A DNA stretch of 63,964 bases, counting the filler, from Reclinomonas americana ATCC 50394 (lineage: Eukaryota): assembly GCA_048213135.1 (NCBI GenBank). It is 7 parts of 4 records of this genome, joined end to end, with 100 filler letters (N's around TTAATTAATTAA, not from the genome) between each part and the next. Parts side by side here need not be neighbours in the genome. Positions count along the whole stretch, not along the records: positions 1 to 9,374 come from PS015289.1; 6 more parts are not named here. One strand, given 5' to 3'. Made by a program: the position numbers and the translations under genes. Under the pieces are notes generated by a model, which was not told the DNA's origin, made no database searches, and saw only the letters and a list, made by a program, of their open reading frames with translations. Positions 1,947 through 55,967 of this stretch are shown here, piece by piece; position 1 is the first letter of the stretch, and each line of letters begins with the position of its first letter.

Positions 1947-3552
<1,606 letters not shown>

Positions 3553-3647: not shown

Positions 3648-3982
3648 CGTGTCTGGCGGGGCGGACAAGGAGGGCCCTCTGCTTTTTTCGGCTGACAGCG
3701 GCGTACCTTACATGGCAGTTATATTTAAGCGTTGACGAAGAACAATCACATCACACGCAAGTGTGAGTGCACGCGCGAGAGAGTGAGAACGAGAAAGGGG
3801 TGAGCATGACAAGATTTGTCATGTTGTCGGATTTCCTTTGTCAGGGTGATTGTGAGACCGAGGAATCTCGACAGCGAGGTTGGTGCGTCGAGACGCATGA
3901 ATCGCATGCCCGTCGTTTGTCGCGCACACACGAATCTTCCGTCGTCCATCGCATTTTTTAAAACCACTTCACAGAGAAAACC

Positions 3983-4375
3983 ATGTCGAGCACACGCCAG
4001 AACCTCGGCCAGCAGCAGCAGCAGCAGCAGCAGCCGTTGCAGCAGCCGTTGCAAACGGGCGCCGGCTGCCCCGTCATCAGTCAGGTCGGACAGAGCACCG
4101 TGCTGGAGAAGACGGAGCAGCCGGTGATGTTCGAGAAGACGGTGCAGCAGCCGATGGTGATCGAGCAAAAGGTGCAACAGCCGGGGATCATCGAGACGCA
4201 GACAAAGCTGCGCCAACAGCAGCCGATTGTTACCGAGGCCGTCCGCAACGTCGGCAACGTTCTCGAGCAGCCCGTGCAAGTCATGCAGGGTCAGGCGACG
4301 ACGTGCGTGCCGGGCGCCCAGGTGCCACAGCAGACGGGCGGCGCCTCGACCGTGCGTCAGTCGGAGCGCATGTAG
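3983..4375 (+). CDS. Gln-rich repeat protein 1 (EKTVQQP motifs), unknown function
   Basis: 130-aa intronless ORF sharing VMEKTVQQP-like motifs with the two downstream paralogs. Confidence 0.75.
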   Translation: MSSTRQNLGQQQQQQQQPLQQPLQTGAGCPVISQVGQSTVLEKTEQPVMFEKTVQQPMVIEQKVQQPGIIETQTKLRQQQPIVTEAVRNVGNVLEQPVQVMQGQATTCVPGAQVPQQTGGASTVRQSERM

Positions 4376-4799
4376 GCCGCCTACAGAAGTGAGAGAGGTA
4401 GAGGGTGGACATCGTAGAGTGCTGATGAGTTCGTGAAATGAACACAGTCCACCACGTGCACGCAGTGATCGCCACCAGAAAAACCGTTGTCGAGTCGGAG
4501 ATCCTCTCTCACACTCCCACAGGAACAAAGTGGCATCACCAAACCGTTCACCAAGAGATGAGCTGCCTTGATGTCAAGCATACCAATCAACAAGTTCCCT
4601 CTTCAAGCCACTGGCCTCCCCTCATCCCACAGCATTCCTTTCTAGCTCACCGGCTGAGCATTGCACAGTTGCTCCTGTTTCACAGATACCACTGTCGCGA
4701 CTGGTGAATCCAGAACAATCCTCGCAGAAATCCTGGTTGGCGATCATCGACTCAAATCACCGTACTTCACCTACACCGACTCGAGCACGCACCATCGCC

Positions 4800-5498
4800 A
4801 TGTCCTTCAATCAGCAGCAGCAGCAACCGGGCTCCGCACACCCCACTGGCTTTGGCCAGCAGCAGGTGCCAGTGCAGCAACAATTCACGACGGAACAAGT
4901 CGTGGGTATCCAGCAGCAGCCGCTCGTCATGGAAAAGACAGTGCAGCAGCCGGCTGTTCTCGAACGAACAATCCAGCAGCCGGGTACGCTGTCAACGGAG
5001 CGCACACTTCACGCTCAGCAGCCGCAAGTTATTCAGTCGGCGCAGTTTGTCGGTGCGCCGCAGGAGCAGCCTACTCGCTTCTTCCAAGGCGACGTGCAGT
5101 CAGTCCCGATCCAGCAACAGCAGCAGCAGGAGACCTATCAGCAACAGGCCTGGCCGCAGCAGCAGCAGCAGCAGCAACCACTGCAGCAACCGATACCGGC
5201 AACGCCCGGCGTCGGCGGTCAAGTGAGTGATGCTGTGCGTGCGACGACGTTCGACGCCCAGTTGGCGCTGGAGGCTGCGGACCCGACCAAGGCCTTCCCT
5301 GGCAGTGGCCTCAACGTCACCACGCCGTTCACGTACGATGAGCGTTCCCATCTGCTGGTCGGCGAGAGAGCTCCAACTGGTACCACCACCACCGGCACCA
5401 AGACGACCAAGACGACTGAGGAGCATCATCGCCACCACAAGCACGACAAGAGCAAGAAGAAGTCGGACAGCGACGTGCGTGCTGAGCCGACAGTGTGA
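4800..5498 (+). CDS. Gln-rich repeat protein 2 with His/Lys-rich C-terminus
   Basis: ATG at 4800 (MSFNQQQ). Core EQVVGIQQQPLVMEKTVQQPAVLERTIQQPG...EQPTRFFQG; tail EEHHRHHKHDKSKKKS. Confidence 0.8.
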   Translation: MSFNQQQQQPGSAHPTGFGQQQVPVQQQFTTEQVVGIQQQPLVMEKTVQQPAVLERTIQQPGTLSTERTLHAQQPQVIQSAQFVGAPQEQPTRFFQGDVQSVPIQQQQQQETYQQQAWPQQQQQQQPLQQPIPATPGVGGQVSDAVRATTFDAQLALEAADPTKAFPGSGLNVTTPFTYDERSHLLVGERAPTGTTTTGTKTTKTTEEHHRHHKHDKSKKKSDSDVRAEPTV

Positions 5499-5714
5499 GG
5501 AGGTGCAGGGGCGATAGAGAGAGAGAGAGAGGGAGAGGAAGTGAGGGAGAATGGAAGACAAAATGCAGGCTGATTCTTGCCGAATATCGAACACGCAGAT
5601 TCTTGTCGCCCGTCTCGACACTGGAATCGAGAATGCTCATGCTCGACCACACGGGTTGAGCACCCGCTATCAAACCTGCATTCTAACCGGGAGAGAGAGA
5701 GAGAACACTCAGCC

Positions 5715-6410
5715 ATGTCCTTCAGCCAGCCACAACAGCAGCGTACCGGTGCCGCGTGCCCCCCTGTCTACCAGCAGCAGCAGGGCCTCCAGCAGGGGCA
5801 GCAGCAGGAACAAGTGGTCGGCATTCAGCAGCAGCCAATGATGGTCGAGAAAACGATGCAGCAGCCGGCGGTGCTGGAGCAGACCGTGCGGCAGCCGGGC
5901 ACGATCACCACGGAACGCGTTCTGCATCTTCAGCAGCCGCAGGTTTTCCAGTCGGCGCACATTGTCGGTGCCGAGCAGGAGCAGCCTACTCGCTTCTTCC
6001 AGGGCGAGGAACGCTCCATTCCCATGCAGCAGGGCACCGGTCAGCAAGAGCAACAACTGCAAGAGCAACAAGTGTGGCAGCAGCAGCAACTTCAGCAGCA
6101 ACAGCAACTTCAGCAGGAACAACTGTGGCAGCAGCAGGGGCTCGAGCAGCAACAACTCGAACAGCAGCAGTTCCACCAGCAGAAGTTCCAACAGCAGCAG
6201 CAGCAGCTCGGAACTGGGCTGCAGAGTGGGGCTCAGGTTGGCGACCAGACGGCCGGAATCGGCGCGTCGCGCATCGAGAAACAGGAGGAGCACCATCACC
6301 ACCATGGCCACAAGCACGACAAGGACGACAACAGTGGCAAGAAGAAGAAGAAGATCGCGGAAGAGGAGAGGGCGATCGCTGCCGCGCGTGCATCGCCCAT
6401 CAAGAAGTAG
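5715..6410 (+). CDS. Gln-rich repeat protein 3 with His/Lys-rich C-terminus
   Basis: ATG at 5715 (MSFSQPQQ). Core near-identical to protein 2; tail EEHHHHHGHKHDKDDNSGKKKKK. Confidence 0.8.
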   Translation: MSFSQPQQQRTGAACPPVYQQQQGLQQGQQQEQVVGIQQQPMMVEKTMQQPAVLEQTVRQPGTITTERVLHLQQPQVFQSAHIVGAEQEQPTRFFQGEERSIPMQQGTGQQEQQLQEQQVWQQQQLQQQQQLQQEQLWQQQGLEQQQLEQQQFHQQKFQQQQQQLGTGLQSGAQVGDQTAGIGASRIEKQEEHHHHHGHKHDKDDNSGKKKKKIAEEERAIAAARASPIKK

Positions 6411-6565
6411 TGTTCTCAGGCAGAGAGAGAGAGAGAGAGAGAGAGAAAGTGGTGTATAGCAGCTGGTGCCAGGTGCAAAAAAGAGCAATGAATAAAATGC
6501 AGACGTGGCACACTCACGGTCAGTAACTCATTCTTCTAAACCCTCTCCGGTCGTCACTTCACTCA

Positions 6566-9354
6566 TCACCTCCTCGGCCCAACATACGTGTGGAAGCCAA
6601 ACTCTGCACCCGCGTCGAACCCACCTACTTTTGCTCGGCACACCGGACACGAGTCACCACGCGCCACCAGCTGCGTGGCACACTTGCGACACACGACCTG
6701 GTGCTGGCACGGACTGAGGCACGTGTCGCGCCACCCGTCACACAGGATGCACGCTCGGCGGCACGAGAGGGCCGCCAAGTCGCGCAGTTCCGCCACGAAT
6801 TCATCCGCAGACGGGCGACGATCGGGTCGGTGATTGACGCACCTGCCAGCGCATTTTGTGAGCTGCACGCGAGCGCAACACGACAAACTCGTGCACACTC
6901 ATCAAACCTCACTGCGAGTCGCACGATGCGCTCACACATGGGCGCGGGCCACACGCGGCCCACCCCTTGGTCCGCCAGCTGCGCAGCCACGTCGGTAAAG
7001 GCGGCCGCCGACGCCTCGTCTTCGACAAGGTCCTCCAGTTCGTCAATCTTCTTGTGCACGCGCTCAATAGGCAGGCCACTGAAGAGCTGTAGGAGGATGA
7101 GTCCGAGGCAGAAAATGTCGGCACTGGGGCGGAGCTCGCCGCGCAGCGCTTTCGGGTCGGCGTACGAGAGGTCGCCGGCAAACGTCACGGACATGTGTGT
7201 CTGGAAAATGGGGGGGAAGTGAGGGGTGGGAGAGAAGGTAGTGGGTGAGAGGTGGACGCACTCCAGCGGTGCGGAACCAGTGCGCCACCCCCATGTCTGC
7301 CACGTGTGCCTGGCCGTACTTGTCGAAGAGAATGTTGGCGGGTTTGAGGTCGCGATGGATGACTGCGCATGTGGGGAAGGGTGGGCACACAAGAGGGAAA
7401 GGAGGGGGCAACGAGGGAGGGTGGATTGGAGTGTGACTCACCGTTCTGGCAATGTGGCGAGGAGAGGGAGGAGGGAGGAGAGGGAAGAGAGAGGGTGAGA
7501 AATGCAGAACGGAAAAAACACGATAAGTTCGAGAGAAACTGCAAGAGGGTTAGCGGGAGAAGGAGAAAGGAACCAAGAAATTGAGGTACAAGTTGATTAC
7601 GAAGGGAGATGGCAGAAACGAGAAAGAGAGGAACAAGAAAATCAGAGACGACAGAAAGGATATAGAGATGAACAGGTGAGAGAGAGTAAGTACGAGAGAC
7701 GCAAGATGTTAAGCGGCAGACGTGCGAAAATGCAAGTGTGTATGAGAGAGAGAGAGAGAGCAGAAGCAAGTGCTGATCACGACAGGAAAAACAGAAAGAG
7801 AAGAACACGGCACACAGATGAAGTCCCGGAGAATGGCAAGACGGCAAGAGTTAGTGAAAGGAAATGGAGACGAGAGAGAGAGAGAGAGTCAGAGAGAGCA
7901 AAAGCAAGTGCTGATCACGACAGAAAAAACAGAGAGATGAACATGTTGCACAGATGAAGCTTTCGTACAGGAGAATGGCAGAGAGCAAGACTGAGAAAGA
8001 AACGGCGACGAGTGCGAGAGAGGGGAAGAGACGGAGGGAGAGAGAAAGTGAGAGATATATCGTCGACGACGTTCAGTCACTTGCGATATAAAGGGCCATA
8101 AAGCTCCACGCAATGAGGCGAGTGTAACATTGAGAATGAAAGAAAGCAACACGGGGAATGACAAGAAAGATTGCAGGCTCATCAACTGTGGCTTCCCCCC
8201 GCACACGACTCACAATCCTGCGACCAGCACCAGTAAGCCACCAGCGCCAAGCACATGCTTCACCACGCGAGATGCGTTGCGCAACTTGTGTAACGCAGCC
8301 ACCACCTCCGCACACCGCAGAATGCAGTTCATGCGGTCCTCTATCGTCATGACTGGCAATCCGCGAGCCGCGTGCTGGAGCAGGCGATGTTCCAGGTTGT
8401 CCGCACTGGCCACAAATGAGTGCATTCATCTCCTCATCCTTCCTTCTCACCACGCACCTCATCGCCTCAAGCACAATGCACCGCTTGCCGTCGTCCGATT
8501 CAGCGAATCCCAGCATACGCACCACGCCAGGCACGGTGACGGCCTTGAGCTTCTCGAGCTGCATCGCCAAAACAACAATGAGCACAAGAAAACTCTCATC
8601 AAGACCAAGACCACACGCACCTCGTTCGAAAACGACTCGATGCACCACGGTGCGCCGCTGTCAAACACCTTCACCGCCACATCAACACCATTCCACTGCC
8701 CCGCAAACACGTCAGCTTGACCGCCGCCACCGAGGCGACGAGAGAAATTGCTGGTGATGGCCTCCAGTCGCTCCCAGGTGAACACCGTGAGGGGCACTGC
8801 ATGCAAGAGAGGGTGCTCAGGATCGACCCGCAAGAGTCGACTTGCGGCATAACACACAAACCTCGCAGATTCAGCTCCTGCTGCGCCGACTCAAGGTCCG
8901 CAGCCAGTCGTGTGGCGCGGGCATGTTCCTCGTGCAGTCGCTCATCCAGCGCCTCCAGTGCCTGCTGCAGCGACTCGCACTGCGCCTGCAGCATATCGGT
9001 GGCTGCCTGCTTCTCCTCCTTGGCCGCGGCCAGCTCGCGACGCAACTGCGCTGCGGCACTCTTGTAGCGCTGTGCTCGCTGCTCGGCCTCCTCTCGCTGC
9101 GCCTCCAGCTCTGCCATGGAGCTCTCGTACTCCTCCACCTCCTGCACGGCCACCGCCTGCTGCTCCTCCAGTTCGCGACGCAGCCGCTCGGCCGTGCGCG
9201 CTTGTGCATCGGTTGCCGCCCGCTGCTGCTCCATGTCACGCTGCAGTTGCGTCGTGGCGAGTCGCTGCTCGTCAACTTCGCGCTGCTTGTCGGCGAGGGT
9301 GGTCTCCATGTCGCGCAGCTGGCGTGCAAGTTCAGAGGCAGCGGGTGTCATTGT
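6566..9354 (-). CDS. Coiled-coil + RLK/Pelle(IRAK)-like protein kinase + C-terminal RING finger (5' partial, multi-exon)
   Basis: Kinase motifs FTWERLEAITSNFSRRLGGGGQADVFAG, VAVK, IHRDLKPANILFD, ADMG and SADIFCLGLILLQL. RING: CILC..CLSPCQHQVVCRKCA..CPVCR. Heptad-rich segment at 8871-9351. Confidence 0.88.
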
Positions 9355-9374
9355 CTGCAGAGGAGAAGGGGGGA

Positions 9375-9474
9375 NNNNNNNNNNNNNNNNNNNNNNNNNN
9401 NNNNNNNNNNNNNNNNNNTTAATTAATTAANNNNNNNNNNNNNNNNNNNNNNNNNNNNNNNNNNNNNNNNNNNN
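9375..9474. other. Artificial scaffold-joining spacer (N-TTAATTAATTAA-N); same spacer at 23356-23455, 33282-33381, 53972-54071, 55861-55960 and 62474-62573
   Basis: Identical 100-nt N block with a central TTAATTAATTAA, which gives stops in all six frames. Confidence 0.95.
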
Positions 9475-9760
9475 GAGTGAGTGGAGAGAGAGAGAGAGAG
9501 AGTGAGTGAGTGAGTGAGTGAGTGAGTGAGTGAGTGAGTGAGTGAGTGAGTGAGTGAGTGAGTGAGTGAGTGAGTGAAGAGAGTGAGTGAGTGAGTGAAG
9601 AGAGTGAGTGAGTGAGTGAGTGAGTGAGAGTGAGTGAGTGAGTGAGTGAGAAGAGTGAGATGCGAGATTTAGACGAGAAGCATCATGATAAGAGAGCGAG
9701 TGAGTACGAGTGAGTGCGTGAGTAAGTGTGTGAGTGAGTGAGTGAGAGAGAGCAAGTGAG
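9475..9760. repeat. (GAGT)n microsatellite
   Basis: Long run of gagt units seen directly. Confidence 0.9.
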
Positions 9761-9799: not shown

Positions 9800-10205
9800 C
9801 GTCTCCTCTGCTGCGCCCTTATAATCGCCCTTTGCGATCTCATCGGCAATGTTGACACTCGAGTAGACCAAATCCGCCATCTCTCTCACTAACTTGTTGC
9901 AAAAAAACAAAAAAACACGATCGCAAAATGGAACACAAAAAAGAGAGATTCATTGACTCTCTCTTCTTGTTGTCAAGTTGCTCACTCTGTTTTGTTTTTT
10001 TCAGAGGAGGCCAGTGACGACACCCACGCCGTCCCATGCCGCGCCACTCCAGTTGCCCTGAGCGAGCTGTGTGTGTGACAGAGAGAGAGTGAGTGTGAGA
10101 GTGCGCGCAATTTCACGCGTGACTTGACGCAACAGCGCCGCCCATGTTGTAGGCCGAGACCACCGAGCCGAGGCCGGGGACGAGAGCGCCAGCAACGCCC
10201 ATTGC
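9800..10205 (-). CDS. Fragment of a small Gly/Ala-rich hydrophobic protein (about 3 exons)
   Basis: Spliced reading: AMGVAGALVPGLGSVVSAYNMGGA|LAQGNWSGAAWDG|LVREMADLVYSSVNIADEIAKGDYKGAAEET, with plausible GT-AG boundaries. Confidence 0.45.
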
Positions 10206-11301
10206 CTGTGTGAGAGTGAGAGAGAAGAGAGTGAGTGCGTGTGTTTGTCTGTTTTTTTCATTTTTTTTTTNNNNNNNNNNNNNNNNNNNNNNNNNNNNNN
10301 NNNNNNNNNNNNNNNNNNNNNNNNNNNNNNNNNNNNNNNNNNNNNNNNNNNNNNNNNNNNNNNNNNNNNNNNNNNNNNNNNNNNNNNNNNNNNNNNNNNN
10401 NNNNNNNNNNNNNNNNNNNNNNNNNNNNNNNNNNNNNNNNNNNNNNNNNNNNNNNNNNNNNNNNNNNNNNNNNNNNNNNNNNNNNNNNNNNNNNNNNNNN
10501 NNNNNNNNNNNNNNNNNNNNNNNNNNNNNNNNNNNNNNNNNNNNNNNNNNNNNNNNNNNNNNNNNNNNNNNNNNNNNNNNNNNNNNNNNNNNNNNNNNNN
10601 NNNNNNNNNNNNNNNNNNNNNNNNNNNNNNNNNNNNNNNNNNNNNNNNNNNNNNNNNNNNNNNNNNNNNNNNNNNNNNNNNNNNNNNNNNNNNNNNNNNN
10701 NNNNNNNNNNNNNNNNNNNNNNNNNNNNNNNNNNNNNNNNNNNNNNNNNNNNNNNNNNNNNNNNNNNNNNNNNNNNNNNNNNNNNNNNNNNNNNNNNNNN
10801 NNNNNNNNNNNNNNNNNNNNNNNNNNNNNNNNNNNNNNNNNNNNNNNNNNNNNNNNNNNNNNNNNNNNNNNNNNNNNNNNNNNNNNNNNNNNNNNNNNNN
10901 NNNNNNNNNNNNNNNNNNNNNNNNNNNNNNNNNNNNNNNNNNNNNNNNNNNNNNNNNNNNNNNNNNNNNNNNNNNNNNNNNNNNNNNNNNNNNNNNNNNN
11001 NNNNNNNNNNNNNNNNNNNNNNNNNNNNNNNNNNNNNNNNNNNNNNNNNNNNNNNNNNNNNNNNNNNNNNNNNNNNNNNNNNNNNNNNNNNNNNNNNNNN
11101 NNNNNNNNNNNNNNNNNNNNNNNNNNNNNNNNNNNNNNNNNNNNNNNNNNNNNNNNNNNNNNNNNNNNNNNNNNNNNNNNNNNNNNNNNNNNNNNNNNNN
11201 NNNNNNNNNNNNNNNNNNNNNNNNNNNNNNNNNNNNNCACTCACCCTTCCCCCTCCCTTCTCCCTCCCTTCTCCTCCCTTCATCTCTCTCCCTTCTCCCA
11301 G

Positions 11302-15762
<4,461 letters not shown>

Positions 15763-16225: not shown

Positions 16226-17556
16226 GTATGAAGAGACAAGGTGGGTCGTGGGCGACGAGAAACGTGTCGGCAGTGCAGGATCAAGGGTGATATCTCGGAG
16301 TCGAAATATGAGGGTGCAGAGAGGGAGATCAAGGTCGGTATTGGCCTCCTTTTGGCCTGGCTGCACGGGCGCAGAGTCAAATCGAGTTGGAGAACAGAGT
16401 GCTCACCAGGTTGCTGCCATGGTCGTTGTCGGCAAGCAACTTGCGGGCAATCATCATGTTGCGAGCTTGAAAGAAAAGGAAGATCCAGAGTGAGGCGTCG
16501 AGCGCTCTTGATAATGGGCGACAACCAGCAAACAACTTTCTTGCTCTGCAGATCACCAGCAGCGGCAAGTGAGCAAAGGTGAAGAATGCGAATGCCAATG
16601 TGACGCTTTGAAGAAGGCCGCTGCGTGCTTGAAACCAAGGCACACCTTTCTCTCCTTCACTCTTTCCCTCTCTCTCTCTCTCTCTCTCTCNNNNNNNNNN
16701 NNNNNNNNNNNNNNNNNNNNNNNNNNNNNNNNNNNNNNNNNNNNNNNNNNNNNNNNNNNNNNNNNNNNNNNNNNNNNNNNNNNNNNNNNNNNNNNNNNNN
16801 NNNNNNNNNNNNNNNNNNNNNNNNNNNNNNNNNNNNNNNNNNNNNNNNNNNNNNNNNNNNNNNNNNNNNNNNNNNNNNNNNNNNNNNNNNNNNNNNNNNN
16901 NAGTAAGTGTGTGAGAGAGTCAGAGGCTGCGACGGAAGAAGAGAGCGAGACAGTTGTGCGTGGGCAAGGTTGGTTTGTGTGCGCATCTGGCAGAGTGCGC
17001 AGGAGTGCTCGTGTGTGTGCGCGAGAGCAAGACGGAGAGAGAGAGAGGCTGAGAAGGAAAGAAGATAGCGGGAGGCTGGTGTGTGGAGAGCGCGTTTTAG
17101 AGTTGGGTTCGTTTGGCTGTGTGCGTGAGTAAATAGAAGAGAGGGAATACTCTGAGTGGCCTGTGCTTGGTGTGCGCGTTGCGTTTGCGACTTCGGTTCG
17201 TGTGCTCATTTGGTAGCGTGTGCTGGAGTGCGTGTTTCGGGTGTGCGATAGAGAGAGAGCTCAAAGTCAAAAGTTGGGTTCGTGTTCTCATCTTGCAGTG
17301 TGTTCGTTTGTGCGCGAATGTGAGAGATATGGGTGCTGAGGAGGCAAGGAGATAGCGAGAGGCTGGTGTGTGGAGAGCGCGTTTGAGTGTTGGGTTCGTT
17401 TGGCTATCTGTGTGAGTGAGTGAAAGGGAGAGAGCGAGAGCGAGTGCACGACCGAGGAAGGAGGTTGAGAAGCAAAGAGAGAGCGAGACACTTGTGCTTT
17501 TAAAGCGCTGTTGTGAGTTGAGAATGTTTGTGCATGTGCAGGAGGCATGTGCGCAC

Positions 17557-24114: not shown

Positions 24115-27100
24115 TCATGCATCCTCTTCTACCATTTGCTCCTCCTCTTCCTCCTCCTCCGCCACCTGCCACACCAGCGGACCGACCTTACCCTGAAATA
24201 CGCGTTGCAGCGTGTCCACTCCTGGAGAAGCCTCGCGCACCGTCGACGTGGCCAGTTGCCACAGCAAAAGCTCATCACCATCGGCCACAAACACCAAACT
24301 CGCCTGCTCCGCCACACCAGACTCGCGCATGCGCACCAACACTGGCGCCACGACGCCCACTGCATCACCACCATGCACACGCACAGTTGCCACCTGCAAG
24401 CGATGCTCATCGCCATCTACAGAGTGCACGCCCTCCAGTGCGCACGCGATCGAGGCTCCTCCCACAGGCAACGAGGACGACGACGACGAGGAGAATGCAC
24501 TGCCGACGGAGAAATCGAGGGCTGTGCACACAGGCAGCGAGTGAGTGAGTGCCTTGCCCAGCAGCGCACGCCTGCACGTACGTCGGTCTTCAATGGCCGC
24601 AAACGAGAGACAGAAGCGTTCGTCGGCGCTACTTATGAGCAGAGAACTGGGAATGCATGGTCAGCATATGCGTGTGACACACACACAAGCATCGACGCGC
24701 ACCAGTCCATGAGGAAGGAGCCGGTGGCCGAGAATGAGGCACGACTGGAGGCAAACACACGCGCGGTCGCCATTCTTTCAAGGATCAAGGACGAGGACAC
24801 GCTTCTCGTGTTTCATTCATCACGTGTAGACGGTCGCAGTGCGAGTTAGCACTCGTTCTTGGCGAGCTCTGGCAGCCGCATCGACTCCCCGTGCAAGCAA
24901 CACAGCAAACCCCCAGATAACCAGCTGGCTGACGACGAGACGAAGTGGCTCCAACAACGTCGCGTGCATCACGTCCGACAGCACCGATGAAGTGGCCTGT
25001 GCGTCCATGTCAGTACATATCCACAGTCAAGAGAGAAAGGTCCCAGCAGCGACTCACCACACCCCAGTCTTCTTGCTCGTCGCGGAATTTGCCAATGGTC
25101 ACCAACACCATGTACGACAGGAACAGGCCGAGAAGCAGGCAGAGGAGGCGAGCGGCCAACTTGAAACCGAATGGCAGATCGTGTTTTCGTGCGCGGTGCC
25201 ACAGTTCCTCCAACGAACTGGCGCCGCGCCGCATCGTCTTCCCGCCAGCATCCACGGCGGCAGCTGTCGGACGCAACAGTGTCGCCTCACGCGTACCGCG
25301 TCGTTGTTCGACCAGCACGGCGGAGGCTCGACAGAGAGTCGGGTCACACACGACGCTGGTGGCGCAATTGACAAAGAGCACGCTGTCAAGGACCACCAAC
25401 GACGGATCCACCATGTTGCCGTCCTGATCCACCTGCATTTCCCCCACCCAAATTGTTGCGTGTCAGCGAAACAAGAGCTGAGCGCTGTGGGAGAATAAAC
25501 AAACAAGACGAAACATTGCTGGACGATGCAGAGGACGACAGCAACTCCTCCACGCCGGCATCGCATTCCACGCGGATACCGGTGCCAAAGCCAACAGTCG
25601 TATCGTGCGACACAACCAGCTGCCGCAAGTGCAACTCCGTAATCGGCCGATACAAGTCGCTCTGTGTCAACGCAACAGCGTCGTCGTCAGTGAACCAGAG
25701 AAAAATAGCCGACCCTTACAGACGGCACGCACCTGCGACTCCACGTCGCTGTCAGAAGAGGCTGTTGGGCCGGCCCATGCACTGTCCGACGGCGGTGGCA
25801 TCAGCGGGAACACGCTCATGCGCCGCGTGCTGCCCACTTGGCTTCCCATTCGAAAACTGACATCGCTGATGCGGGTCGATCGCTTGCGCGACATGGTGGA
25901 CGAGGCGGTGGACTGCGCGACCCACGGCGCACCAGGCGAGTGTGGCGAATACTGCTGCAACAGCTGCTCGTCTACGGCCGTACACACACGCAACGCCACC
26001 CGATTGCTTGGCGACATCAATTCGGATCCACACACTTGGATGACGGCCTGCCACTCGTCGCACGAGATCAGCATCAGAACGCCGGTCTTGGTGCGACCCT
26101 TGGCCGGAATAGTCAGAGGCGGATAGACTCCCGGACGCAGGAACACCACACTCGGCAGCTGCTCATGCTGCTCATCGAATAGTCGTTGAAGCTCAAAGGG
26201 ATCTGTGGTGGCGTCGACAAAGACGTAGTCCTGCGAGTCGCGAATCCGCTGCAACTCGGCCTCCGTGGCCCGCTGCGGCGAGAAGAGACCCTGGATACGC
26301 GCCGACAGGCCTGCACAGCCGTAAGTGTCAGCTCTCACACAGGCAGGAAACAGAAGACTTGTTGCTTCTGCGCCGGCTGTACCTCGTGACTTTTGCGCAG
26401 CCGAGTTCCACCACTCATCCTGCTCGCCGCGGTAGAACTCGTGTTGAAGGAAGGCAGCAACCAAGTCAAAGTAGCTGTCGCGCATCACTCCGTACGGAGC
26501 CAGACGCTCCTGCTTGTCTTGACATTGCATCTGGCAACGAGATACTAAAATCAACAAGCAAAGTCCACCCCAACAAACAACAACAAGAAGCGACGCACAA
26601 TCCAGGCACGAGCGAACAGCAGGAAACCACCCAGCGGATTATCCAACGATGCCTCACACAGCGCCAGCTGCAACAAGCTGTTGACTCGAGGCGCGCAGGT
26701 CTGCACTCGAGTTGACGCAGCATCGGTATCCTGCAGTGTCGGGAGAAAAAGGGATGATTTAACTGCATGCAACAGCTCCAGTCCACCAGGAGACGCGGAA
26801 CGCAACTTGCGAATCAAGAGTCGGTGCACGCCAGGTGAAGCGCAATGTGGCGAGCTTGTAGTCGCCGGTGGCGGAAAGATCGCTGAGAATACTGAATCCG
26901 TGAATGCGGCGCTCCGCAAGCCACCCTCTGCGGGTCAATTGCTGCCACAACTCCAATGTAAGCTGGGACTGCATGTGACTCGCGAATTTTGGACGGCGGA
27001 GAAGGGTACTCACCCCACGGTTACGCGACGACCGGAGCGCCGGCAACGCACTGTTGTTAGACGCCTCCGCATCAAGAAGCATTTCTTGCTCATTGCGCAG

Positions 27101-30100: not shown

Positions 30101-33100
30101 AAGCCCACCTGTGAGGGCACGGACAGTCAGTATGTCACTGCATGCATTGTACATAACCAAAGGACGCACTTCGACCAGCGCGTTAAAGTGATCAGCGTCA
30201 CCGGCGAGTCGCTGGCCTATCGTATGCGGCAAGACTACAAGTGGAGTTCGAAGCGCGTCAGATCCTTGCGCAGACGTCAGCGTCTCAAATGCCACTGAGA
30301 AAAAACATATGGTGAGAACTCTACGAGGACACTTGTCGATTTGAAGGGCTTGTGGCTCACCCGAGTACGCTCCCTTGGAAGCCGATGTCACAGTTGGGTC
30401 CACCTTTTGGGCTCGGAACGTAAAGTTTGGCGTTGAAACCGTTGTCGCACCCTCTTTCCCGGTCTGCTCACAAGGTGAGCATGCACGGCAATGTCCAACA
30501 CACAAAAAGAGACTCACCAGTCCAGCCACTGTGCGATGTGCGATCTGATTCAACACCGGTTCCAAGGCGCACTGAGTGGCAATCGCATCCGCTTCGTCTG
30601 TCGTCGGCAGCGAAAGCATGGTCGACACGGCCTCGGCCAGTGACTGCAAGGCAAGAGAGCAAACATCGGTCAGCTGCTAACTACACCTCGCACGCAATGG
30701 GAACAACACGCGCTGACACGGACGCACACTCAGCGCAGCAGTCGACGGGTATGCCGACAAATTCTGCGCCACTGCGCGTGCCGCGGACACCAAGTTCTGC
30801 CGCACCACCTGCATGTCGGCCGCTGGTAAGCTGCTAGTCACCTGTGTAGCGTGGTACGAATGTCAGTTCCTGACTGTAGCAGATAGTAAAATCGAGGCAC
30901 CATGCACTCACATTCGCCACATTGTTCACCACAGAGGCGAACGACGCCAATTCCAGTCCGTCACCCGTGGACACATGACTGCTGGCGGCAAGCACGACCT
31001 CCGACATGCGCGTCAAGGCGGAAGGGGAAACGACTGTCATGCGCAACGCTGCGTCAATGGCATGACATCAATGAGACGAGAATGCTGGCCAGCCAACTTA
31101 ACTTGGAGAAGTGTCACTATTGCCAGACAGCATGCTGCTACCGCTCAGCAGAGACAAACTTGCTGTCACGGTGCTCAACACAATTGAAGCGGCGCCAGGA
31201 CTCTGTACCAGCACCGATGAGAGTGAGTCACGAACGGCGACGCCAATCAACAATGCCTGTTCAGCGCGCACCGTGATATTCACGGCACTGGCCGACGACA
31301 GCACTGTATCGACTGCGGCTAGCACAGAAGTGGAGTCGGCATACATCTTGCGATGCAATGTAATGACAGCGATGACCGACGTTCTACGAAAGGAGTCAAC
31401 AAGTCGGCAAGAGATTGGTGCGAACAGCCGAGAGCGCAGGTGCGTGAACGACTCACCGGCCACCATCCACATCAGTCGCTGTGACGCCGACAGTGGCTTG
31501 ATCCTGAGCGCGGCACAAGTGCTGCAGTTTGACCCCGCTGACCTTGCCCGATGGACCCGATCCCAGAGTCAACTGTGGCGCACAGAAATGAGACCACAGT
31601 AAGACAGCGACACACAGCGCGAAACTGGCAGACAGGGGATGACGGCACCTGCTGATTGGATTCGGGATCGAGCACAAAGAAAGTATACGTCAGCGGCATT
31701 GGCGAATCAGGATCTTGGAAACCAGTGGCCACCAGGTCGAACTCCGTCTCCAGCTCCACTCCCTCAGACGGCGAACAGACAAGCATTCCACGAGTCGGCG
31801 GCACATTGACCGTGATTAAACGACGAATGAGGACTGCGGAAACGAGATTACGACACGTCAGCTCCATCGCAAATGGTCGGGCAGACGGAAAGTAATGCTG
31901 CAACACACCTCGTCCAGTCAGCGGATGCGTTACCCACGCTTCGGCTTCGTACGCGACTCCAGGAACGAACGAGTTGGCTGGAATAATCGCGAAACCATCG
32001 CTTGGTGTCCATCCGAACGAGGCGACTTTGACCGAAGGTGAGCCGGTCCTGTTTTTTTCAAATTGCACGATCAGAAACGGCAGGATACCAACTCGTGCAA
32101 CAGACACAACGCAACGCTTTCGAATAGATTCCCCACTCGAACGTCATCTTTGCGACGTCAGCAGGCGCCACACCGTCCATGATCAAGTCCAGCGTCAGCG
32201 GCAGCGAGGCATCAAAGCTGCGAGACAAGCTCCCCTGCGCACAGCATGATGAGAAGGAGGAAGGGAGCACACCAGGATCATGATCAGAGCATTTCTCCAC
32301 GCACTCGAATAAAGGCACTTCCTGAGCCGATGCGCGCTGTCTGGGTTCCAAAATCTGCGGCACATTCACACAAAAAGTTGGAACACAACAGAAAACACTG
32401 CTCACACACAACGGGCACACACGCACCTTGGAAGACGTACACGTTTTGCGCGTACACTCCACCGTTGCCGTCATTGGTCTGCACTTGCACCTCGTGATTG
32501 CTGCCAGCCAGGTCGTCCGTGTCCACCACGAGGTTCGAGCCGGTGACGTTGAACTTCGACCCAGATCGCCCGCCGATAATCGTCAACGTCTGCGTCTGGC
32601 AACAATTGTTGTCACTGACGTCTAGCGGTCCAATGACGGTTCCGCGCCGTGCAAACGGCGTCATGCCCACCGCCGCGGGTTCCACTGCAAATGTGTTGTG
32701 CACCAGCGCAATTGATGTCGGTGGCACATTGGCTGTTGTAACAACAATCCCCAAGAGAGTCAGTCGCCAACGGAGCACCACAGTGACGGACAAAGCGAAA
32801 AACAGAACCTTCAGTGATGGTGAACGATTGTGACTGCGACAGCCCACGCGAGTCGGTCACTTGCAGTGTCACTTGCAAGTTCAGGCCCTGCTGCGAAGGC
32901 GACCGGACAACCAGATTTGTTCCCTGGACATCAAAGAGGCTGGCGGCCGGACCACCAGCAACTGAGTATGTCAACACCTCGTTTGAGTTCAGGTCCGTGG
33001 CCGACAGCTGTCCCACTGCGGAATTGGCGGTCCCCGACATGGGAATGTACAGCCGATTCGACAAGGCGAGACCCGTCGGCGCCACATTCACTAACGAATC

Positions 33101-35171: not shown

Positions 35172-38100
35172 AATGGGCCAGTTAATGTCCCTCGCGGGTG
35201 ACATACCACACGGTGGTCTGGTCCTCCAACAGGCGCCACCCGCTCCTCAGCAGCAGCAACAGCCTGCCGCCGCCGCTGCCGCACCTGCTGCTGCTGCAGG
35301 CGCGGCCGCCGCTGGTGGTGCCGCTGTCGCACAAGCCGTGCCTGCAGCTGCTGGCGCACCTGCTGCTGCGCCTGCCCCCGCCGCTGCTGCAGTGGCGGCT
35401 GTTGCAGCGGCTGCGGCGGCTCCTGCGGCTGCGGCTGCGGCTGCGGCGGCTGCTGCTGCGGCGGCTATGAACAACCCAGCAGGTGCAGCAGGCGCGCCCG
35501 GTGCTGAGTCGCCTGAGGATGTGCTGTTCTTGTCAACGGCGCTGGAGCGGCTCGCCGACGATGACTATGTCAGTGAGCGGTACGATCGCTTTGCGGCGTT
35601 GCTGGGGGAGCCACCGCGTGCGGCACTGCGGAAGCTCTTGGAGGCCGTCAAGAGAGAGCGCGAAAAGGGCGACTTGACTGCGGGGTTTCGGTGGGTGCTC
35701 GTGTGGAGCGTGTGAGCGGGCATGAGATAGAGTGGCAGTGAGAGCGACAGTGAGCGAGTGTGTGAGTGTGTGTGAGAGTGTGTTTGGCGCCATCACCAAC
35801 ATCCCGCGCAACTGCTTGTGTTGTCTCGTGTACGCGCTCCGTTGTTCTCTGCGTGTCATCGCCTTGTGGTGTGTCTGAACATGGCGTATGTGCGTTTGGA
35901 TGGGGGAGAGTGGGGCGCGGGGTGATAGAGCATCGACATTTCCCCCCACGCACGCACGTACGCTGACAACTTCGCGTGGTGCAGACCCGAGTCGGAGCGT
36001 GATCGCCTCAAGAAGCTGGACCGGCTCACGCGGGAGCTTCGGTCGCTGGTCGTGTCGGAGAGCTTCCAGTACGGCGAGCTGTTTGAGCGTCGCTTCTTGA
36101 TTTTGGCCAAGATGCACCGATCGCTGCAGAAGCAGAAGCAGTTGAACGAAGTTGAGCTCCCTGCCCGTCGCCCTTCCCCCTTCCCCCTTTTCCTGTCTCC
36201 CATTGTGCTCATGCATCCGTTGCAGGAGCGCCACCGTGTGTTCTCGTCGCTCAAGGAGGTGGAGGCGCGATTGTCGGGCGCTGCGGTCGCCGGCCAGCAG
36301 CGCATGCACCAGGTGGTGGAGACGTCGATCCTCGGTGGCATTCGCCTCATTCTGGCGCTGTTCCGATCGCTGGGTCGCGTCGACAAGGAGTTGTCGTGGG
36401 AATTGCTGCGCTTCCTGCGTGATCAGCTCGGCTCACTCGATCGCTTGAGCCTGGCCAAGGTCCACTCTCACTCTCCCACCTGCTCGCTCTGTGTTGTTGT
36501 TGTTGTGGATAAGCTCACTGTGTCTATACTATGCTACAGAATGCTGGCCTCCCTGCTCCACATCTGTGCAAGGTGGGACTCGACAGCATTCGCGATTTTC
36601 TGCTCAGCATCAGTCGCGACGCTCCGTCGTCACCGTTGCGTCCGTGGCGTGCAGGTTTACTATCTGACTGGTTCATCAGCCTCTTCAATTGACTGTTGGG
36701 TCTTCTCCAATACACAGTGAGGGTCTGGAGGCGCTGAGTCTGCTGACTGGCCTGGCGCTGAATCGAGCCTCGGTGAAGGAGATTCTGAGCATTGTGGTGC
36801 TGCTGCTGCGTGGCCTCGAGGGGAATGTGGCGGATTCGGTCAACGAGTTGTTGGTGGCCAACTTTTTGGAGCGCTTCGCGCCCCTTCGTTGCGAGTTGCA
36901 ACTGTGTGGCTTTGGCGAAACATCTCGTGTCGGTTCGTCGTGCGGCAAATGTACGCACTCAGTCTCACGCACACAGGCACTGACGTAGTGGTCATTGCGC
37001 GCAGCGTCGGTGGCATGGCCGTCGGTGCCGAGTCTGGACGGTCAGAGTGTGTACAGCATTGCGTGCGATGGCGAGTATCTGTACGTGCACGGCACATTTG
37101 GATTGCTGAAACTGGGTTCCGGACTTCACGGGACTACGGCCGGTGGCGTCATCCACCATCTGCCGGGCTTCATGCCCGCCTCGAGGAGTTCACTGGGCGT
37201 TCTCGGACAGCACCTGTTGGTGCGCTCGGTCGAAGTCGCGCCGGCGGCTTTGGTCGTTCTCAGCCTGGACTCGTTGCAGGTGGGAGAACAAACAGACAGA
37301 GAGGAGATGGGTTGACGTAGCTTCTCACACTGCTGTCGTCGTCGTCGTTGTCGAGCAGGAAGTGGGTCGGGTGATGCAGAATGGCTCGGGATCGTATGCG
37401 ACCGACGACAACTCGGCATTCCCACTGTCTGCACTGACGGCACCTGCCGATGGCTCGGCAGTGCATTTCACGCCCGTGTGCACCGATGGAAAGCGCGTGT
37501 TCCAGATCGTGCGCAGCGACCAAGCCGTGTTTGTGCACGAGTACGACGGCGAGCGATTGCGCCACAGGAAGCGCATTCAACTGCGTGGTCGACGCAAGAG
37601 TTGAGTCGCCTAATATGGCTTCCGCACAGGGCACACCGTCTGACGCCCTTTCCTCTCTCTCTCTCACTCTCTCTCTCTCTCAGTCAATGCCAGCGAGGCG
37701 GAGCGCTCGTGCATTCATCTTGGTCCGGGGAACTTTGTGACGTTGCGCAACCCACCGGCACTGAATTTTGAGGGTCGTGTGACCATTGAGGCGTGGGTGA
37801 TGCTCGACGAGTTGGTGTCGACCAGCATGTGCAACATTGTGGCGCACGGCAATCCAGTGGCGCCCTACCCGCAGGTGTTCCTTCGTGTCAACAAGGGTCG
37901 TTTTGAGGCCGGCAGTTGCCAGGAGCGTTGCTTTGGTGCTGCCGTGCGCATCCAGCCGCGCGACATTGGTCGCTGGGTGCATCTGGCGGCCGTGTATGAT
38001 GGTGCCAATTGGCACATTCACAAGAACGGCGATCGTGCCGCGTCGTCCGGCTGCCACCACGGCGCCGTGACCATTCATGATGCCGATTGGGTGAGTGCCG

Positions 38101-41100
38101 CACTCCTCGCCATACTCCGTCCGACTCTTCTCTTTGTGTGACGTCGCCTCCCTCGTAGTGCATCGGCGCCACGAGCGACGGTGCTTCTCGCTACTTCCCC
38201 GGCTGCATCGATGAAGTGCGCATCTGGTCGTGTGCTCGCAAGTCCAACGACCTGAAGCACTACATGCGTCGCACTCTGCGTGGCGACGAGACGCACTTGC
38301 AGGCCTATTTCGGCCTCAATGAGGGCTCGGGACGCACCGTGTTTGACCTGTCGCCCAACGGATTGACGGGATCGTTTGTCGGCAACCCCAAGTGGCGTCG
38401 AGGCGGCGCTCCGATTGAGCTCGGCGATGCTGCATCGGGTGCGTCATCAAGTCTTTTTTTTCGTCTTTCTCGTGAGTTACGCGTGCTCACTTCTGTGCGG
38501 ATAAGCAGAGATCAAGTACTTTGAGCCTCGCATCCGCCCACCCACCGACAACTACTCGTGGTACACCAATGGCCAGTTCATCGGCGTGGTGCTATCGCCG
38601 GAGGACTCGGCATCGCTGTTGGGCGCCGATGGCAAGCCGCATGAGCGCGTGTGCCAGGTGTATTCGCTGGCCGACGGCGCGCTCACGCGTGAGTGCATTG
38701 TCGAGTTGCCGACTGCCAACCCAGGTGGGTGATGTATGTGGAGCGATGCTGCCGGGGAGTATCTATTCTGACAATGTGTTGGTGCAGTGCTGGCCTTCGA
38801 CCTGTGGAACAATGTGCTGTGGAGCGTCGTCAACTCGGAGAATGCCATTGTCAGCTGGCAGAATCTCGGCTTTGCGCCGTTTGAGGATGTGCCTGACATT
38901 GACAGTGAGCAGTTCCCACTCAAGGCGGAGACCATTGTCAGCTCACCGTTCTTCAAGGTGCAGGCTGGGAGTATTGCTCCGCTAGCACGCTGGAGTCTGT
39001 ACTAATGTTTTGGTGCGCTTCTGTTTCCTAGGGTCATCGTCGTGCCGTGGAGCACTACTCCGTGGAGAAGGTGGTGGTGTGGGCACTGGCTGCCATGGAT
39101 CTGTCGATTGGACGCATCGATGCAGCCACGGACAAGGAGCTGTTTGTGCCGTACATTGTGGAGATCGACGAGCACACGTTCCCGCAGATTTTCCAGGTGC
39201 TGGTGCAGCTGCAACGCTTGTACGTCAGCGACAGCGGCGAGTCGCGGCGCGACAAGCTGGTGCACGTGTACGCGCTGCTGGTGGTGCTGAAGGTGCTGCG
39301 AGCCAACCTCAAGCAGCTCGTGCGCATCAACATCAATCCCATTGATTGCGGACTGGGCGCGGAGAGTGAGCCTACGGCGCTTCGCAAGAAGTACCTCGAC
39401 GTGTTGTTGGTGCTGGTCGACGAGCAGCCGAAGCATCCGCTTGCCGTCACCGCCCAGGCGGCGATCCAGGCCGAGGTGTGCAACGTCCTCACCGAGGGCC
39501 TCAACGTGTTTGTGCCCTCCATCAATCAGCAGGCAGAGGTCAGTCTGTCTCGGGTACACACTGCGTTGGTGACGTCGCTGCTGACTTCTATTGTCTCCAC
39601 CATCCCCAGCTGCTCACCAGCTCAATGGAGAGCCCCGACGCTTTCACAGGCTCGCGCAAGACCCTGTTGGACGCGCTCATGCGCAAGTTCTCGGAGGTGT
39701 CTGCGGCCTTTGAGCTGATGAGCCACAGCACTCCCGCCACGATTCTCAGCAGCGCAGCGGCGGCCGACAGTGGCCACGGCGATGTGTCGTTCCGCGTGCA
39801 ACTGCTGAGTGCCGTGGTCCGTGTCGTTCGCAAGGAGGAGAAGCACGTGCTGGCGTTGGTGCGCGAGGGCGATCCGATTCCGCCCATGACGGCCATATTG
39901 CTGCTGTCCAACCTGGTCAAGGCGTTTTTGAGTGATCTGTGCATGGACTATGTGGAGCGCGACGCGCCGCGCGCATCACAGGCGGGACCGAACCTGAAGG
40001 ACATGCGTGACTTTGCTGTGATGTGGCTGGCCGAGAGCAAGGAGGCGTTCCAGGTTTGTGTAATCGGCGGCTGTGTGTGTTGTGCATATTTGATGTCACC
40101 TCTAACTCGTGTGTGACAGAGTGTGGCGGAGATTGCCGAGGGTGTGCAAATGACTGAGATGCTCTCCGAGGCCATCAAGAGCGGCACCATTCTGGCGCTC
40201 TTCCCGGCCGTTGTCGCCTCCCTGTGCCAGTTTGTGCGCATTCCGTCACTGGCGGCCGCGCTGGTGGTGCCAGTGGTCGACCTGCTGACCTGCCTGGACT
40301 CGATCAACACGAACATTCCGGAACTTTTGCAGGCCGATCGTGAGGTGCTCAAGCTCGCCGACCGTGGTGTCCCGGCGCTGCAGGAGGAGGTCGTGGAATC
40401 GAAGCACCCGTTGCGTTGTCGATACAATCCTTTTGTGGTCGGAGAGCAGTGCACTCATTCCGTGAGTCAGGTATCCGAGCAATGTCGAAGAGTGCTTTGT
40501 GGTCTCGTTTGCCGGCTGCAAGTACCTGTCGCTGATGTTCGACTCGCAGTGCTGCATGGAGCAAGAGTTCCGCTCCAAGTGTGATGCATGTTGACGGTCT
40601 TGCGTCTTTGACTCACACGCATGGTGTGCAGTTCGGATGTGTTGGAAATCTACGCCGGCTCCAACAGGAGCAGCTCGTTGGTCGGGCGTTACACTGGCAA
40701 GGGTGCGTTGGCGTGACCGATGCAAAGTGCTGTTGCTCACGAGTGTGTGTCTCACTCGCTGTTCCTGTACGCCGGCAGGCAACTATCCCAAGGACCAAGT
40801 GCGCGTGGAGACCGATTCCCTTCTCTTCTACTTCAAGAGCGACTTTGCAAGCAACAAGCGCGACTTTGGTTACAAGATCACAGTTCGTGCCACCTATGAG
40901 CATCATCAGCTGTCGATTCCGTGGCTGCTGGATGCCGAAAAGTCTCTTGCGTACCTCGTGGGCAAGGTATGTCATTATTTCCCCTCTCTGTCGGCTTCAC
41001 GAAGCTCATTTTCGCCTCTTTGCGTGACGAATAGATTTGCTTGGTGCTGCTGAGTGGATACCCGACGGATGAGCGAGAGGACGCCATGCGCGTGTGGCTT

Positions 41101-46213: not shown

Positions 46214-47327
46214 AGTCGGAATCTGCAAAGACACACACACACACACACACATAGTCAGCGGCCGACAATTACACCGACCACCACCACCACCAGCCGTTGC
46301 TCACCTTACTTCACCCCACTCAGCCTCGGTGGTTGGCGCACGGCTGCGGCCCCAGACGAAACGCAAGAACCGTGACCGCTCCTCTGGCGAGAACGATTCG
46401 AGTGCCTGCCAAAAGTACTTGACGGTCGGATGTTGCGAATCCAGTGCATTGCGATAGTCTGTTCTTCGCTTGAGGTCCTCGATGTTGAGAACCGGCCGAC
46501 CACACACCAACACCTCCAGATCACGCCAGTCGAAGAGACCCAGGAACTGGATTGGCTGTGGTGCAACATCACTCGATTCAGCAACGCACACAGCGTTTGC
46601 AGCAGTGAGTGACTCGAACACGCGCACTCACCACCACACAGTTCAAGCCCTCCTTCATCTTCTGCACTTGCAACTTGCTTTCCTCCAGTCGCTTCTTCAG
46701 CAACAACTCCGCATACTCTACCAAATTCTCGGAACTGCACGCGGGAGAAGAACGAGCGTCAGCAACCCAGATGTGAATGCAGACGTGGGCGGTGGCGTCC
46801 ACGCAACGTGATTGGTATTTCACGACCGCCCTCCTTTAGCTCCACCTCCACACCGCCCGGAAGTACACACGTGAACGTGGCACCGGTCATGCCGGCCACA
46901 ATGTCCGCGCGGACTTCGTCGTCGGCCTCCAATACCGACTGAATGAACCGTGCTGTTGTCGTGTCAACGGCACTCAGGTCGGAGAGCGTGAGCGGTTGGT
47001 CCACCTGCACCGAGAGAGCGCGCAGTTAGCCTGCAGCCTCCTGTGCATTGCCAACAACACACAGTCGCTGCGCACCAACTGCTTCCACACAGTGACGGCC
47101 AGATCGAGATTGAGCGTGTTCCGCGTGCGCAGCGCAATGCCCATCAACTTGCCCATGAATTTGTACATGCCGAGATGGACGGGCCGCGTTGACGCCGGAT
47201 TCACAACAAATTTCTCGCTGTGACGCATAGAGCGGTTTCAGTAAAACACACAGAGCAGGAGTGGACAGCAAGTGACAGCAGCAACTCACCGATTCTCTCC
47301 AATTTGATTCGTGTTGTTCGAACAGGG
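46214..47327 (-). CDS. HECT E3 ubiquitin-ligase domain fragment (HERC/HECTD4 type) on a gap-flanked contig
   Basis: MYKFMGKLMGIALRTRNTLNLDL, ELKEGGREIPIT, LEVLVCGRPVLNIEDLK and VKYFWQALESFSPEERSRFLRFVWGRSR. Confidence 0.92.
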
Positions 47328-55798: not shown

Positions 55799-55967
55799 CT
55801 ACAGGGGCGAAGAGGGAGAGGAGTGAGATATCGTCTCATGTCGCAACAAAAAAACAAAAANNNNNNNNNNNNNNNNNNNNNNNNNNNNNNNNNNNNNNNN
55901 NNNNTTAATTAATTAANNNNNNNNNNNNNNNNNNNNNNNNNNNNNNNNNNNNNNNNNNNNTTTCAGG

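Follow-up and report, generated by a model that had tools for sequence, protein, structure and literature searches.

The stretch of DNA considered here, referred to below as the window, comprises 63,964 nucleotides (nt) of the assembly GCA_048213135.1 of Reclinomonas americana ATCC 50394. On its minus strand it carries a multi-exon gene for a protein kinase in which two consecutive exons of only 4 nt, or micro-exons, probably precede the catalytic loop. Six-frame translation placed this gene between at least position 9354 and position 6566, with a coiled-coil exon, five kinase exons (K1 to K5) and a final exon bearing a RING finger (K6), whose coordinates are collected in Table 1. Beyond the coiled-coil exon in the upstream direction, the gene continues into a gap of N. 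Gaps of this kind, at 9372-9480, about 10150-11240 and elsewhere, amount to 3512 bases in total and were read as the mark of a scaffolded draft; one of them cuts the 5' part of the kinase gene.

The kinase gene and its relatives

When the exons were joined by their coordinates, with both micro-exons included, a single open frame was obtained across the coiled coil, the kinase domain and the RING finger to the stop codon. The joined translation contains a glycine loop, the lysine of VAVK, HRDLKPAN, DMG in place of DFG, and an RPS motif. The catalytic motifs (glycine loop, VAVK, HRD...N and DFG) are named after the Hanks-Hunter subdomains. The single-exon open reading frame (ORF) that holds K4 matched the Pfam family Pkinase (PF00069) with an E value of 5.4e-07 and 29.7 bits, against a gathering cut-off of 31.7, and the RING finger zf-C3HC4_3 (PF13920) in K6 exceeded its gathering score (37.3 bits vs 27, E 2.3e-09). 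No Pfam match was obtained with the K3 exon alone, which aligns with the helix that precedes the catalytic loop in homologues, and Rfam and transfer RNA scans of the window gave no matches. The five introns of the gene that lie outside the K3-K4 junction are 50-65 nt long; GTGCGT is the donor of three of them, GTTTGT and GTGAGG are the donors of one each, and every acceptor is CAG. The gene product is probably an active RLK/Pelle-like protein kinase of the TKL group that has a coiled coil at its N-terminus and a RING finger at its C-terminus.

The relatives of this protein are distant. A HMMER search with the ORF at 6628-7437, which contains K5, against 1.84 billion representative sequences returned 15 proteins with E values of 0.001 or less, one of them at or below 1e-10 and none at or below 1e-30. 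The best match had 34% identity, and the nearest kinase matches had 31-44%. Six of the matches were looked up and proved to be four hypothetical proteins of Closterium, one kinase-plus-RING protein with a cluster member from Pyramimonas parkeae, and one angiosperm protein; several further matches resemble plant receptor-like kinases when their sequences are read. One of the relatives is P0010, an RLK/Pelle (IRAK)-like TKL kinase that matched the K5 ORF at 41% identity and whose 90%-identity cluster includes a 515-aa member, P0138, labelled Pyramimonas parkeae. As in the gene described here, its kinase domain is followed by a RING finger of the C3HC4 type, and it gave the top isoform alignment score, about 111 bits, among the four HMMER matches that were modelled. 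It differs in having a TIR-like N-terminus (by reading) instead of the coiled coil, and 3 additional residues ahead of the catalytic loop. None of the 15 HMMER matches was an ortholog near enough to allow intron positions to be compared. When longer proteins were searched by word index with the K3 ORF, 2112 candidates came up, none of them at an E value of 10 or less. A protein-pattern scan of metagenome contigs picked out 435 stretches, of which none was confirmed, and the exact 42-nt K4 string had 0 matches there.

Table 1. Positions of the kinase exons, of the micro-exons and introns proposed at the K3-K4 junction, and of gene fragments elsewhere in the window
Feature	Position	Strand	Basis and remarks
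Coiled-coil exon	8862-9354	-	Open frame, weak coiled-coil-type Pfam matches only; acceptor CAG 9357-9355; donor GTTTGT at 8861
Kinase exon K1 (glycine loop, VAVK lysine)	8621-8796	-	Translation; introns on either side 65 and 62 nt
Kinase exon K2	8458-8558	-	Donor GTGCGT; next intron 52 nt
Kinase exon K3 (...A-A-L-H-K at its end, the last two bases AA belonging to the Lys codon)	8286-8405	-	Sequence read
Proposed intron 1, 68 nt	8218-8285	-	GTTGCG...GCAG; length within the 50-84 nt of the 12 reference introns
Proposed micro-exon 1, GATT	8214-8217	-	CAG/GATT/GTGAGT
Proposed intron 2, 768 nt	7446-8213	-	GTGAGT...CCAG; 74% pyrimidine on the coding strand
Proposed micro-exon 2, AACG	7442-7445	-	CAG/AACG/GTGAGT; long pyrimidine tract immediately upstream
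Proposed intron 3, 79 nt	7363-7441	-	GTGAGT...GCAG; pyrimidine fraction 0.73
Kinase exon K4 (catalytic loop HRDLKPAN, DMG variant of DFG)	7262-7362	-	Translation; Pfam Pkinase match below the gathering cut-off
Kinase exon K5 (activation segment to C-lobe)	6913-7200	-	Inside ORF 6628-7437 (HMMER query)
Exon K6 (end of kinase domain, RING finger, stop codon)	6566-6862	-	Pfam and translation
REJ domain	31475-32143	-	Pfam gene fragment
Laminin_G_3	37644-38521	+	Pfam gene fragment
HECT	46304-46627	-	Pfam gene fragment
UDP-glucose pyrophosphorylase, several exons	49020-50843	+	Pfam gene fragment
E1 enzyme ubiquitin-fold domain	51162-51560	-	Pfam gene fragment
Universal stress protein	52298-52735	-	Pfam gene fragment

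The junction between K3 and K4

On the minus strand, K3 terminates as ...TTA CAC AA at 8286 and is followed by GTTGCG from 8285, while K4 opens as cag/TC ATC CAT CGC with its first base at 7362. Between them lie the two candidate micro-exons GATT and AACG, each with AG directly upstream and GT directly downstream. The coordinates and signals given for this junction in a preliminary description of the locus (8286/8285, 8217-8214, 7445-7442 and 7362) were all recovered when the minus strand was read again, as were the perfect GTGAGT donors of both modules and the 768-nt repeat-rich intron that separates them. Its reading of the protein, in which inclusion of both micro-exons gives ALHK-I-N-VIHRDLKPAN, agrees with the single open frame of the joined exons. 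The frameshift that it expected on skipping was also found: if either micro-exon is skipped, a stop follows about 40 codons on, and skipping both also shifts the frame. Sequence comparison indicates that inclusion of the two is required both for the reading frame and for a conserved spacing of the protein. The codons at the junction would be split over four exons, with AA supplied by K3, then GATT, then AACG, and the rest by K4. The reading that we favour is accordingly that two constitutive, consecutive 4-nt micro-exons, obligatory for the reading frame, probably lie between LHK and VIHRD; it is drawn from DNA and is weighed below.

The actin gene of the same window serves as a local yardstick. 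It was found by Pfam at 1947-3552, on the minus strand like the kinase gene and 4 kb distant from it, and encodes a divergent actin of 374 aa which, over its last exon, is about 51-70% identical to other actins drawn from all eukaryotes. Its eight exons and seven introns of 54-84 nt are set exactly by the conservation of actin, and the joined coding sequence of 1125 nt is intact. Exons 2 and 3 of this gene, which encode the DNGSG-MCK region, are adjacent and measure 15 nt (3456-3442) and 11 nt (3357-3347), so consecutive tiny exons do exist in this genome. GTTGCG is the donor at two of the seven actin introns, and actin intron 1 shares its first nine bases with the donor at 8285; because these actin donors are fixed by conservation, the seemingly weak donor at 8285 is of a type proven in this organism. 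The actin gene thus resembles the kinase model in its consecutive micro-exons, its short introns and its use of both GTTGCG and GTGAGT donors. It differs in that its micro-exons are about three times longer than those of the kinase and in that every actin intron is short.

The actin introns, together with the five other kinase introns, made up a reference set of 12 conservation-anchored introns, with 8 donor hexamers and CAG at all acceptors. In a path search restricted to these 8 hexamers as donors and to CAG as acceptor, the gap between K3 and K4 contained 4 donors and 8 acceptors, which can be combined into 92 paths, 14 of them in frame and stop-free. The sole path that leaves no insert in the protein is the one with the two micro-exons; the next shortest adds six residues and alters the strand before HRD. 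Splicing with a single GT-AG intron offers seven in-frame solutions, all seven of which leave inserts; for the three solutions taken on to modelling, the inserts are 12, 25 and 49 residues long. The rarity of such an arrangement was assessed with 5000 dinucleotide-preserving shuffles of the 922 nt from the His codon to the final CAG, using the reference splice signals: any short in-frame path (23 nt or less inserted) arose in 57/5000, and one with the exact observed spacing in 8/5000. The module pattern CAGNNNNGTGAGT occurs twice in the window when both strands are counted, and both occurrences are the two micro-exon modules. Its window-wide count is ordinary (1.30 expected; two or more copies in 37 of 100 shuffles), and it is the co-location of the two copies that is unusual, with about 0.009 copies expected per 923-nt stretch of a single strand by post hoc arithmetic.

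At the protein level, six candidate spliced forms were scored against the 15 homologues. The three forms that add 8 nt were the best or within about 2 bits of the best for 14 of them; the exception was P0014, for which both forms with a single 8-nt exon scored 2.2 bits below the form with two 4-nt exons. Against P0006, P0007, P0008 and P0010, the form with a 12-residue insert lost about 0-7 bits, and those with 25 and 49 residues lost about 18-50 bits. For P0008, for instance, the score fell from 106.8 to 99.4, 85.2 and 56.7 with inserts of 12, 25 and 49 residues, respectively. P0002, P0011 and P0012 gave equal scores for all spliced forms. The approach to the catalytic loop was unbroken in the four junction alignments of the form with two 4-nt exons, of which that with P0003 is free of gaps over the junction, and those with P0005, P0008 and P0010 show 2-3 more residues in the homologue there. 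The number of residues from the helix His to the His of HRD was also counted by regular expression in 19 kinase domains of the 15 homologues, one further domain, which has no LH, being left outside the count. It was 3 (three domains), 5 (three), 7 (four), 8 (seven) or 10 (two). The three values of 3 belong to domains of Closterium in which an extra His is present; as the alignment with P0003 shows, one of them is really 5, and the other two read likewise. The adjusted range is therefore 5-10, compared with 5 for the two-micro-exon model and at least 17 for models with an insert.

Composition bears on the boundaries of the second micro-exon. The pyrimidine fraction of the proposed intron 3 is higher than in all 1736 windows of 79 nt taken from the reference exons (2701 nt), where the maximum is 0.66; this stretch is thus intron-like, so that an exon must end at 7442, and the long pyrimidine tract upstream of 7445 makes a longer exon there unlikely. 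The splice sites of intron 3 are also the only ones that stand out clearly when scored with a weight matrix derived from the 12 reference introns, the donor falling within the highest-scoring 1.7% of GT sites and the acceptor within the highest-scoring 3.4% of AG sites.

Several observations weigh against the two micro-exons. Being in frame is in itself no evidence, because a permissive search, open to every AG acceptor and to GT and GC donors alike, with no more than three introns and a minimum intron length of 40 nt, finds 98,478 in-frame, stop-free paths over the gap. The statistic on the module pattern is post hoc. The hexamer GTTGCG shows no enrichment across the window (59 matches vs 54 expected) and also occurs at two sites within the kinase gene that are not donors. 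The proposed intron 1 is exon-like in composition, 37% of exon windows being equally or more pyrimidine-rich, and the reading frame stays open through it, so its status as an intron would rest solely on its donor, its acceptor and the logic of the frame. The weight matrix fails to set four of the six sites apart from background, with the donor and acceptor of intron 1 in the top 26% and 31% of GT and AG sites and those of intron 2 in the top 16% and 65%. Leave-one-out donor scores of the true introns range from -4.0 to 11.5, with -4.0 and 1.8 for the GTTGCG donors of actin; the matrix is overfitted and too noisy for ranking paths, and was given little weight, yet it still offers no support. 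Finally, the linker before HRD is 2-5 residues longer in 13 of the 19 homologue domains. The usual LHxxxIIHRDLK spacing to which the preliminary description appealed is therefore matched by six of the 19 domains, and the shortest spacing is compatible with the family and not required by it. On balance, the earlier proposal of two consecutive 4-nt exons is probable and stands as the best-supported reading of the DNA, through the insert-free path, its rarity in shuffles and the alignment scores.

If the two micro-exons are real, their size has consequences for the order of splicing. The 3' and 5' splice sites of each would lie 4 nt apart, which would make their simultaneous occupancy impossible. 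Given this spacing and the short outer introns, an outer-first order is proposed, in which the introns of 68 and 79 nt, of normal size here, would be removed first by intron definition. This step would fuse GATT to the tail of K3 and AACG to the head of K4, and the repeat-expanded middle intron of 768 nt would then be removed between two composite exons of normal size. A more far-reaching version holds that consecutive 4-nt exons (8 nt in all, with phases 2, 0 and 1) sit in an active kinase core, that fixed-order splicing in three steps gates production of the kinase, and that this production could be tuned through the tandem GT at +4 or by detaining the middle intron. Taken as a whole, this version is improbable and is put forward as a speculation.

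The sequences around the micro-exons show some further features. At 7744-8022, the middle intron holds 2.0 tandem copies of a 138-nt unit (79% matches), and it also contains GA/CT microsatellites. A transposon or introner origin of this intron is not supported, as no dispersed copy other than microsatellite matches occurs in the window and the intron has no (terminal) inverted repeats, a single window being too little to exclude such an origin. An origin of the two modules by duplication of one another was rejected by eye, the sequence that they share being limited to the splice consensus. Recursive splicing, in which ratchet points of zero length leave no bases in the messenger RNA (mRNA), does not fit either, as dropping both 4-nt pieces shifts the frame. 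The donor of intron 1 lies inside a 10-nt palindrome at 8276-8285, and the same nine bases can also be read on the plus strand.

Alternative readings of the junction

A kinase without micro-exons, in which an insert stands before the catalytic loop, is unlikely, and is treated first as the alternative that survives best. It would arise either by reading through K3 to 8213 and splicing to an exon that starts at 7445 (49 residues), or by splicing from a donor at 8241 to 7362 (12 residues). No stop interrupts the frame between K3 and 8214 or between 7549 and K4, the region of intron 1 has the composition of an exon, the donor at 8213 and the acceptor at 7446 are shared with the model of two micro-exons, and the shorter insert costs as little as 0-7 bits in the four alignments given above. 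What speaks against an insert is the length of the linker, 17 to more than 50 residues where the 19 homologue domains have 5-10, and the loss of about 18-50 bits with the long versions. The 79 nt before K4 exceed every exon window in pyrimidine content, and the hexamer at the 8241 donor is absent from the reference donors. An insert would also turn both the CAG located 4 nt before 8213 and the GTGAGT located 4 nt after 7446 into coincidences.

A pseudogene, a dead kinase or a local misassembly, any of which would leave the locus with no productive junction at all, appears quite unlikely. The assembly is a draft with 3512 N in the window and with gaps about 1 kb upstream, and neither a close relative nor an entry from the organism's own proteome was found in the protein searches. 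Against this reading, all nine proposed exons are open, the catalytic residues and the RING cysteines are intact, no N is present between 8405 and 7262, and a decayed gene would not be expected to retain a unique insert-free path.

A single micro-exon of 8 nt, at 8217-8210 (donor 8209) or at 7445-7438 (donor 7437), with the other module as plain intron or with the two as mutually exclusive exons, is very unlikely. GTGAGT contains a second GT four bases in, and each of the two resulting paths keeps the frame and runs without a stop. These paths manage with one intron fewer and yield LHK-x-V-IIHRD, with an even more typical IIHRD, and against the homologues they score within about 2 bits of the form with two 4-nt exons, a near tie that counts against the favoured reading. 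The donors required, GTCGTG and GTCACA, are unseen among the 12 reference introns, as is C at intron position 3, and each would need to win over a perfect GTGAGT that lies only four bases upstream of it. It would also be a coincidence that the gap, where about 0.009 copies are expected, contains a second CAG-N4-GTGAGT module. For these reasons (the unmatched donors, the competing GTGAGT and the unexplained second module), a single 8-nt exon ranks well below the two 4-nt exons.

The least likely alternative is the one that the preliminary description had raised as a possible frame-based on/off switch, in which regulated skipping of a micro-exon or use of the GT at +4 would frameshift the mRNA and turn the kinase off, for example via nonsense-mediated decay. 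It finds no support beyond the premature stop after skipping and the tandem GT at +4 of each GTGAGT, and every exon with a length not divisible by three causes a frameshift when skipped. Strong GTGAGT donors agree with constitutive inclusion, and in Yu et al. (2022, PMC8831610) stronger splice-site motifs are described at constitutive human brain micro-exons, and plant variants are more often due to intron retention than to skipping.

Comparison with known micro-exons and other features of the window

Micro-exons in plants are 1-15 nt long, internal and coding, with canonical flanking introns, and are often missed in annotation (Yu et al., 2022, PMC8831610). They keep conserved domains in frame, and the examples include a 4-nt micro-exon of rice confirmed by RT-PCR and validated 1-nt exons in APC11 and VPS55 with conserved strong GTRAGT donors (PMC8831610). 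The two introns that flank a plant micro-exon are removed consecutively, and one of them is often detained; in Chlamydomonas reinhardtii, 337 micro-exons were reported, with Pkinase as the top Pfam motif encoded (PMC8831610). Compared with these plant cases, the exons proposed here are two of 4 nt that are directly adjacent, 8 nt in total, and are known from DNA alone.

A close published parallel is a pair of adjacent micro-exons of 5 and 12 nt in a Peptidase M1 gene of rice and Zygnema, which was verified by RT-PCR or RNA-seq (PMC8831610; PMC11096116) and attributed to stepwise intronization (PMC11096116). As in the kinase model, two consecutive micro-exons are located inside a conserved domain. 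The Peptidase M1 pair is larger and is conserved across land plants, whereas the pair of 4 and 4 nt is known from the DNA of one gene. In animals, human MPC1 has a constitutive 4-bp micro-exon (PMC9929638), and RPS24 has three micro-exons of 3, 18 and 22 bp (PMC12207440). The former resembles the exons proposed here in its length of 4 bp, in not being a multiple of three and in its constitutive inclusion, and the latter in having consecutive micro-exons within one gene. Both differ in being animal genes with long introns and splicing by exon definition, and the micro-exons of RPS24 are alternatively spliced at the C-terminus, outside any catalytic core.

No adjacent exon pair as small as 4 and 4 nt turned up in a partial literature search, which did not extend to the supplementary tables of PMC8831610, where very small kinase micro-exons may be listed. 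The kinase exon pair, extreme as it is, belongs to a known kind of splicing and involves no new biological principle: the literature already contains exons in the range of 1-15 nt, one of 4 nt that was validated, and micro-exons that lie next to each other. If true, it would mark an extreme in the smallness and packing of exons, and would be a natural substrate for ordered splicing by intron definition with sites 4 nt apart. Standard gene finders and spliced aligners would mis-annotate the kinase as truncated, frameshifted or insert-bearing. Given the exons of 11 and 15 nt in the actin gene of the same genome, the whole annotation needs methods that are aware of micro-exons. The chief value of the locus would be that of an annotation trap and of a test case for ordered splicing.

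Elsewhere in the window, Pfam detected the gene fragments listed at the end of Table 1. An uninterrupted ORF of 383 aa with WD40 repeats occupies 615-1766 on the plus strand; the beta-propeller profile of THOC3 was just over its cut-off there, and the best matches were generic WD40 proteins of bacteria and fungi with 31-58% identity. The intron-less state of this gene is unusual next to such intron-rich neighbours. The region 3750-6530, which adjoins the 3' end of the kinase gene, is rich in CAG/CTG-type repeats, is open in several frames on both strands with runs of L, A, Q and C, and matches nothing in Pfam. It represents either coding sequence of low complexity or simply repeat DNA. An open frame of 947 aa at 55909-58752 on the plus strand had as its only Pfam matches odd ones to which no stretch is assigned (to a tail-sheath domain of phages and to the C-terminal domain of GST), and is probably low-complexity sequence. 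Long (GTGA)n/(TCAC)n microsatellite arrays, which translate as THSL repeats, are located at 9480-9740, 12514-12523, 17412-17421, 24541-24550 and 45313-45322, and they inflate the count of GTGAGT in the window to 121, compared with 52 expected.

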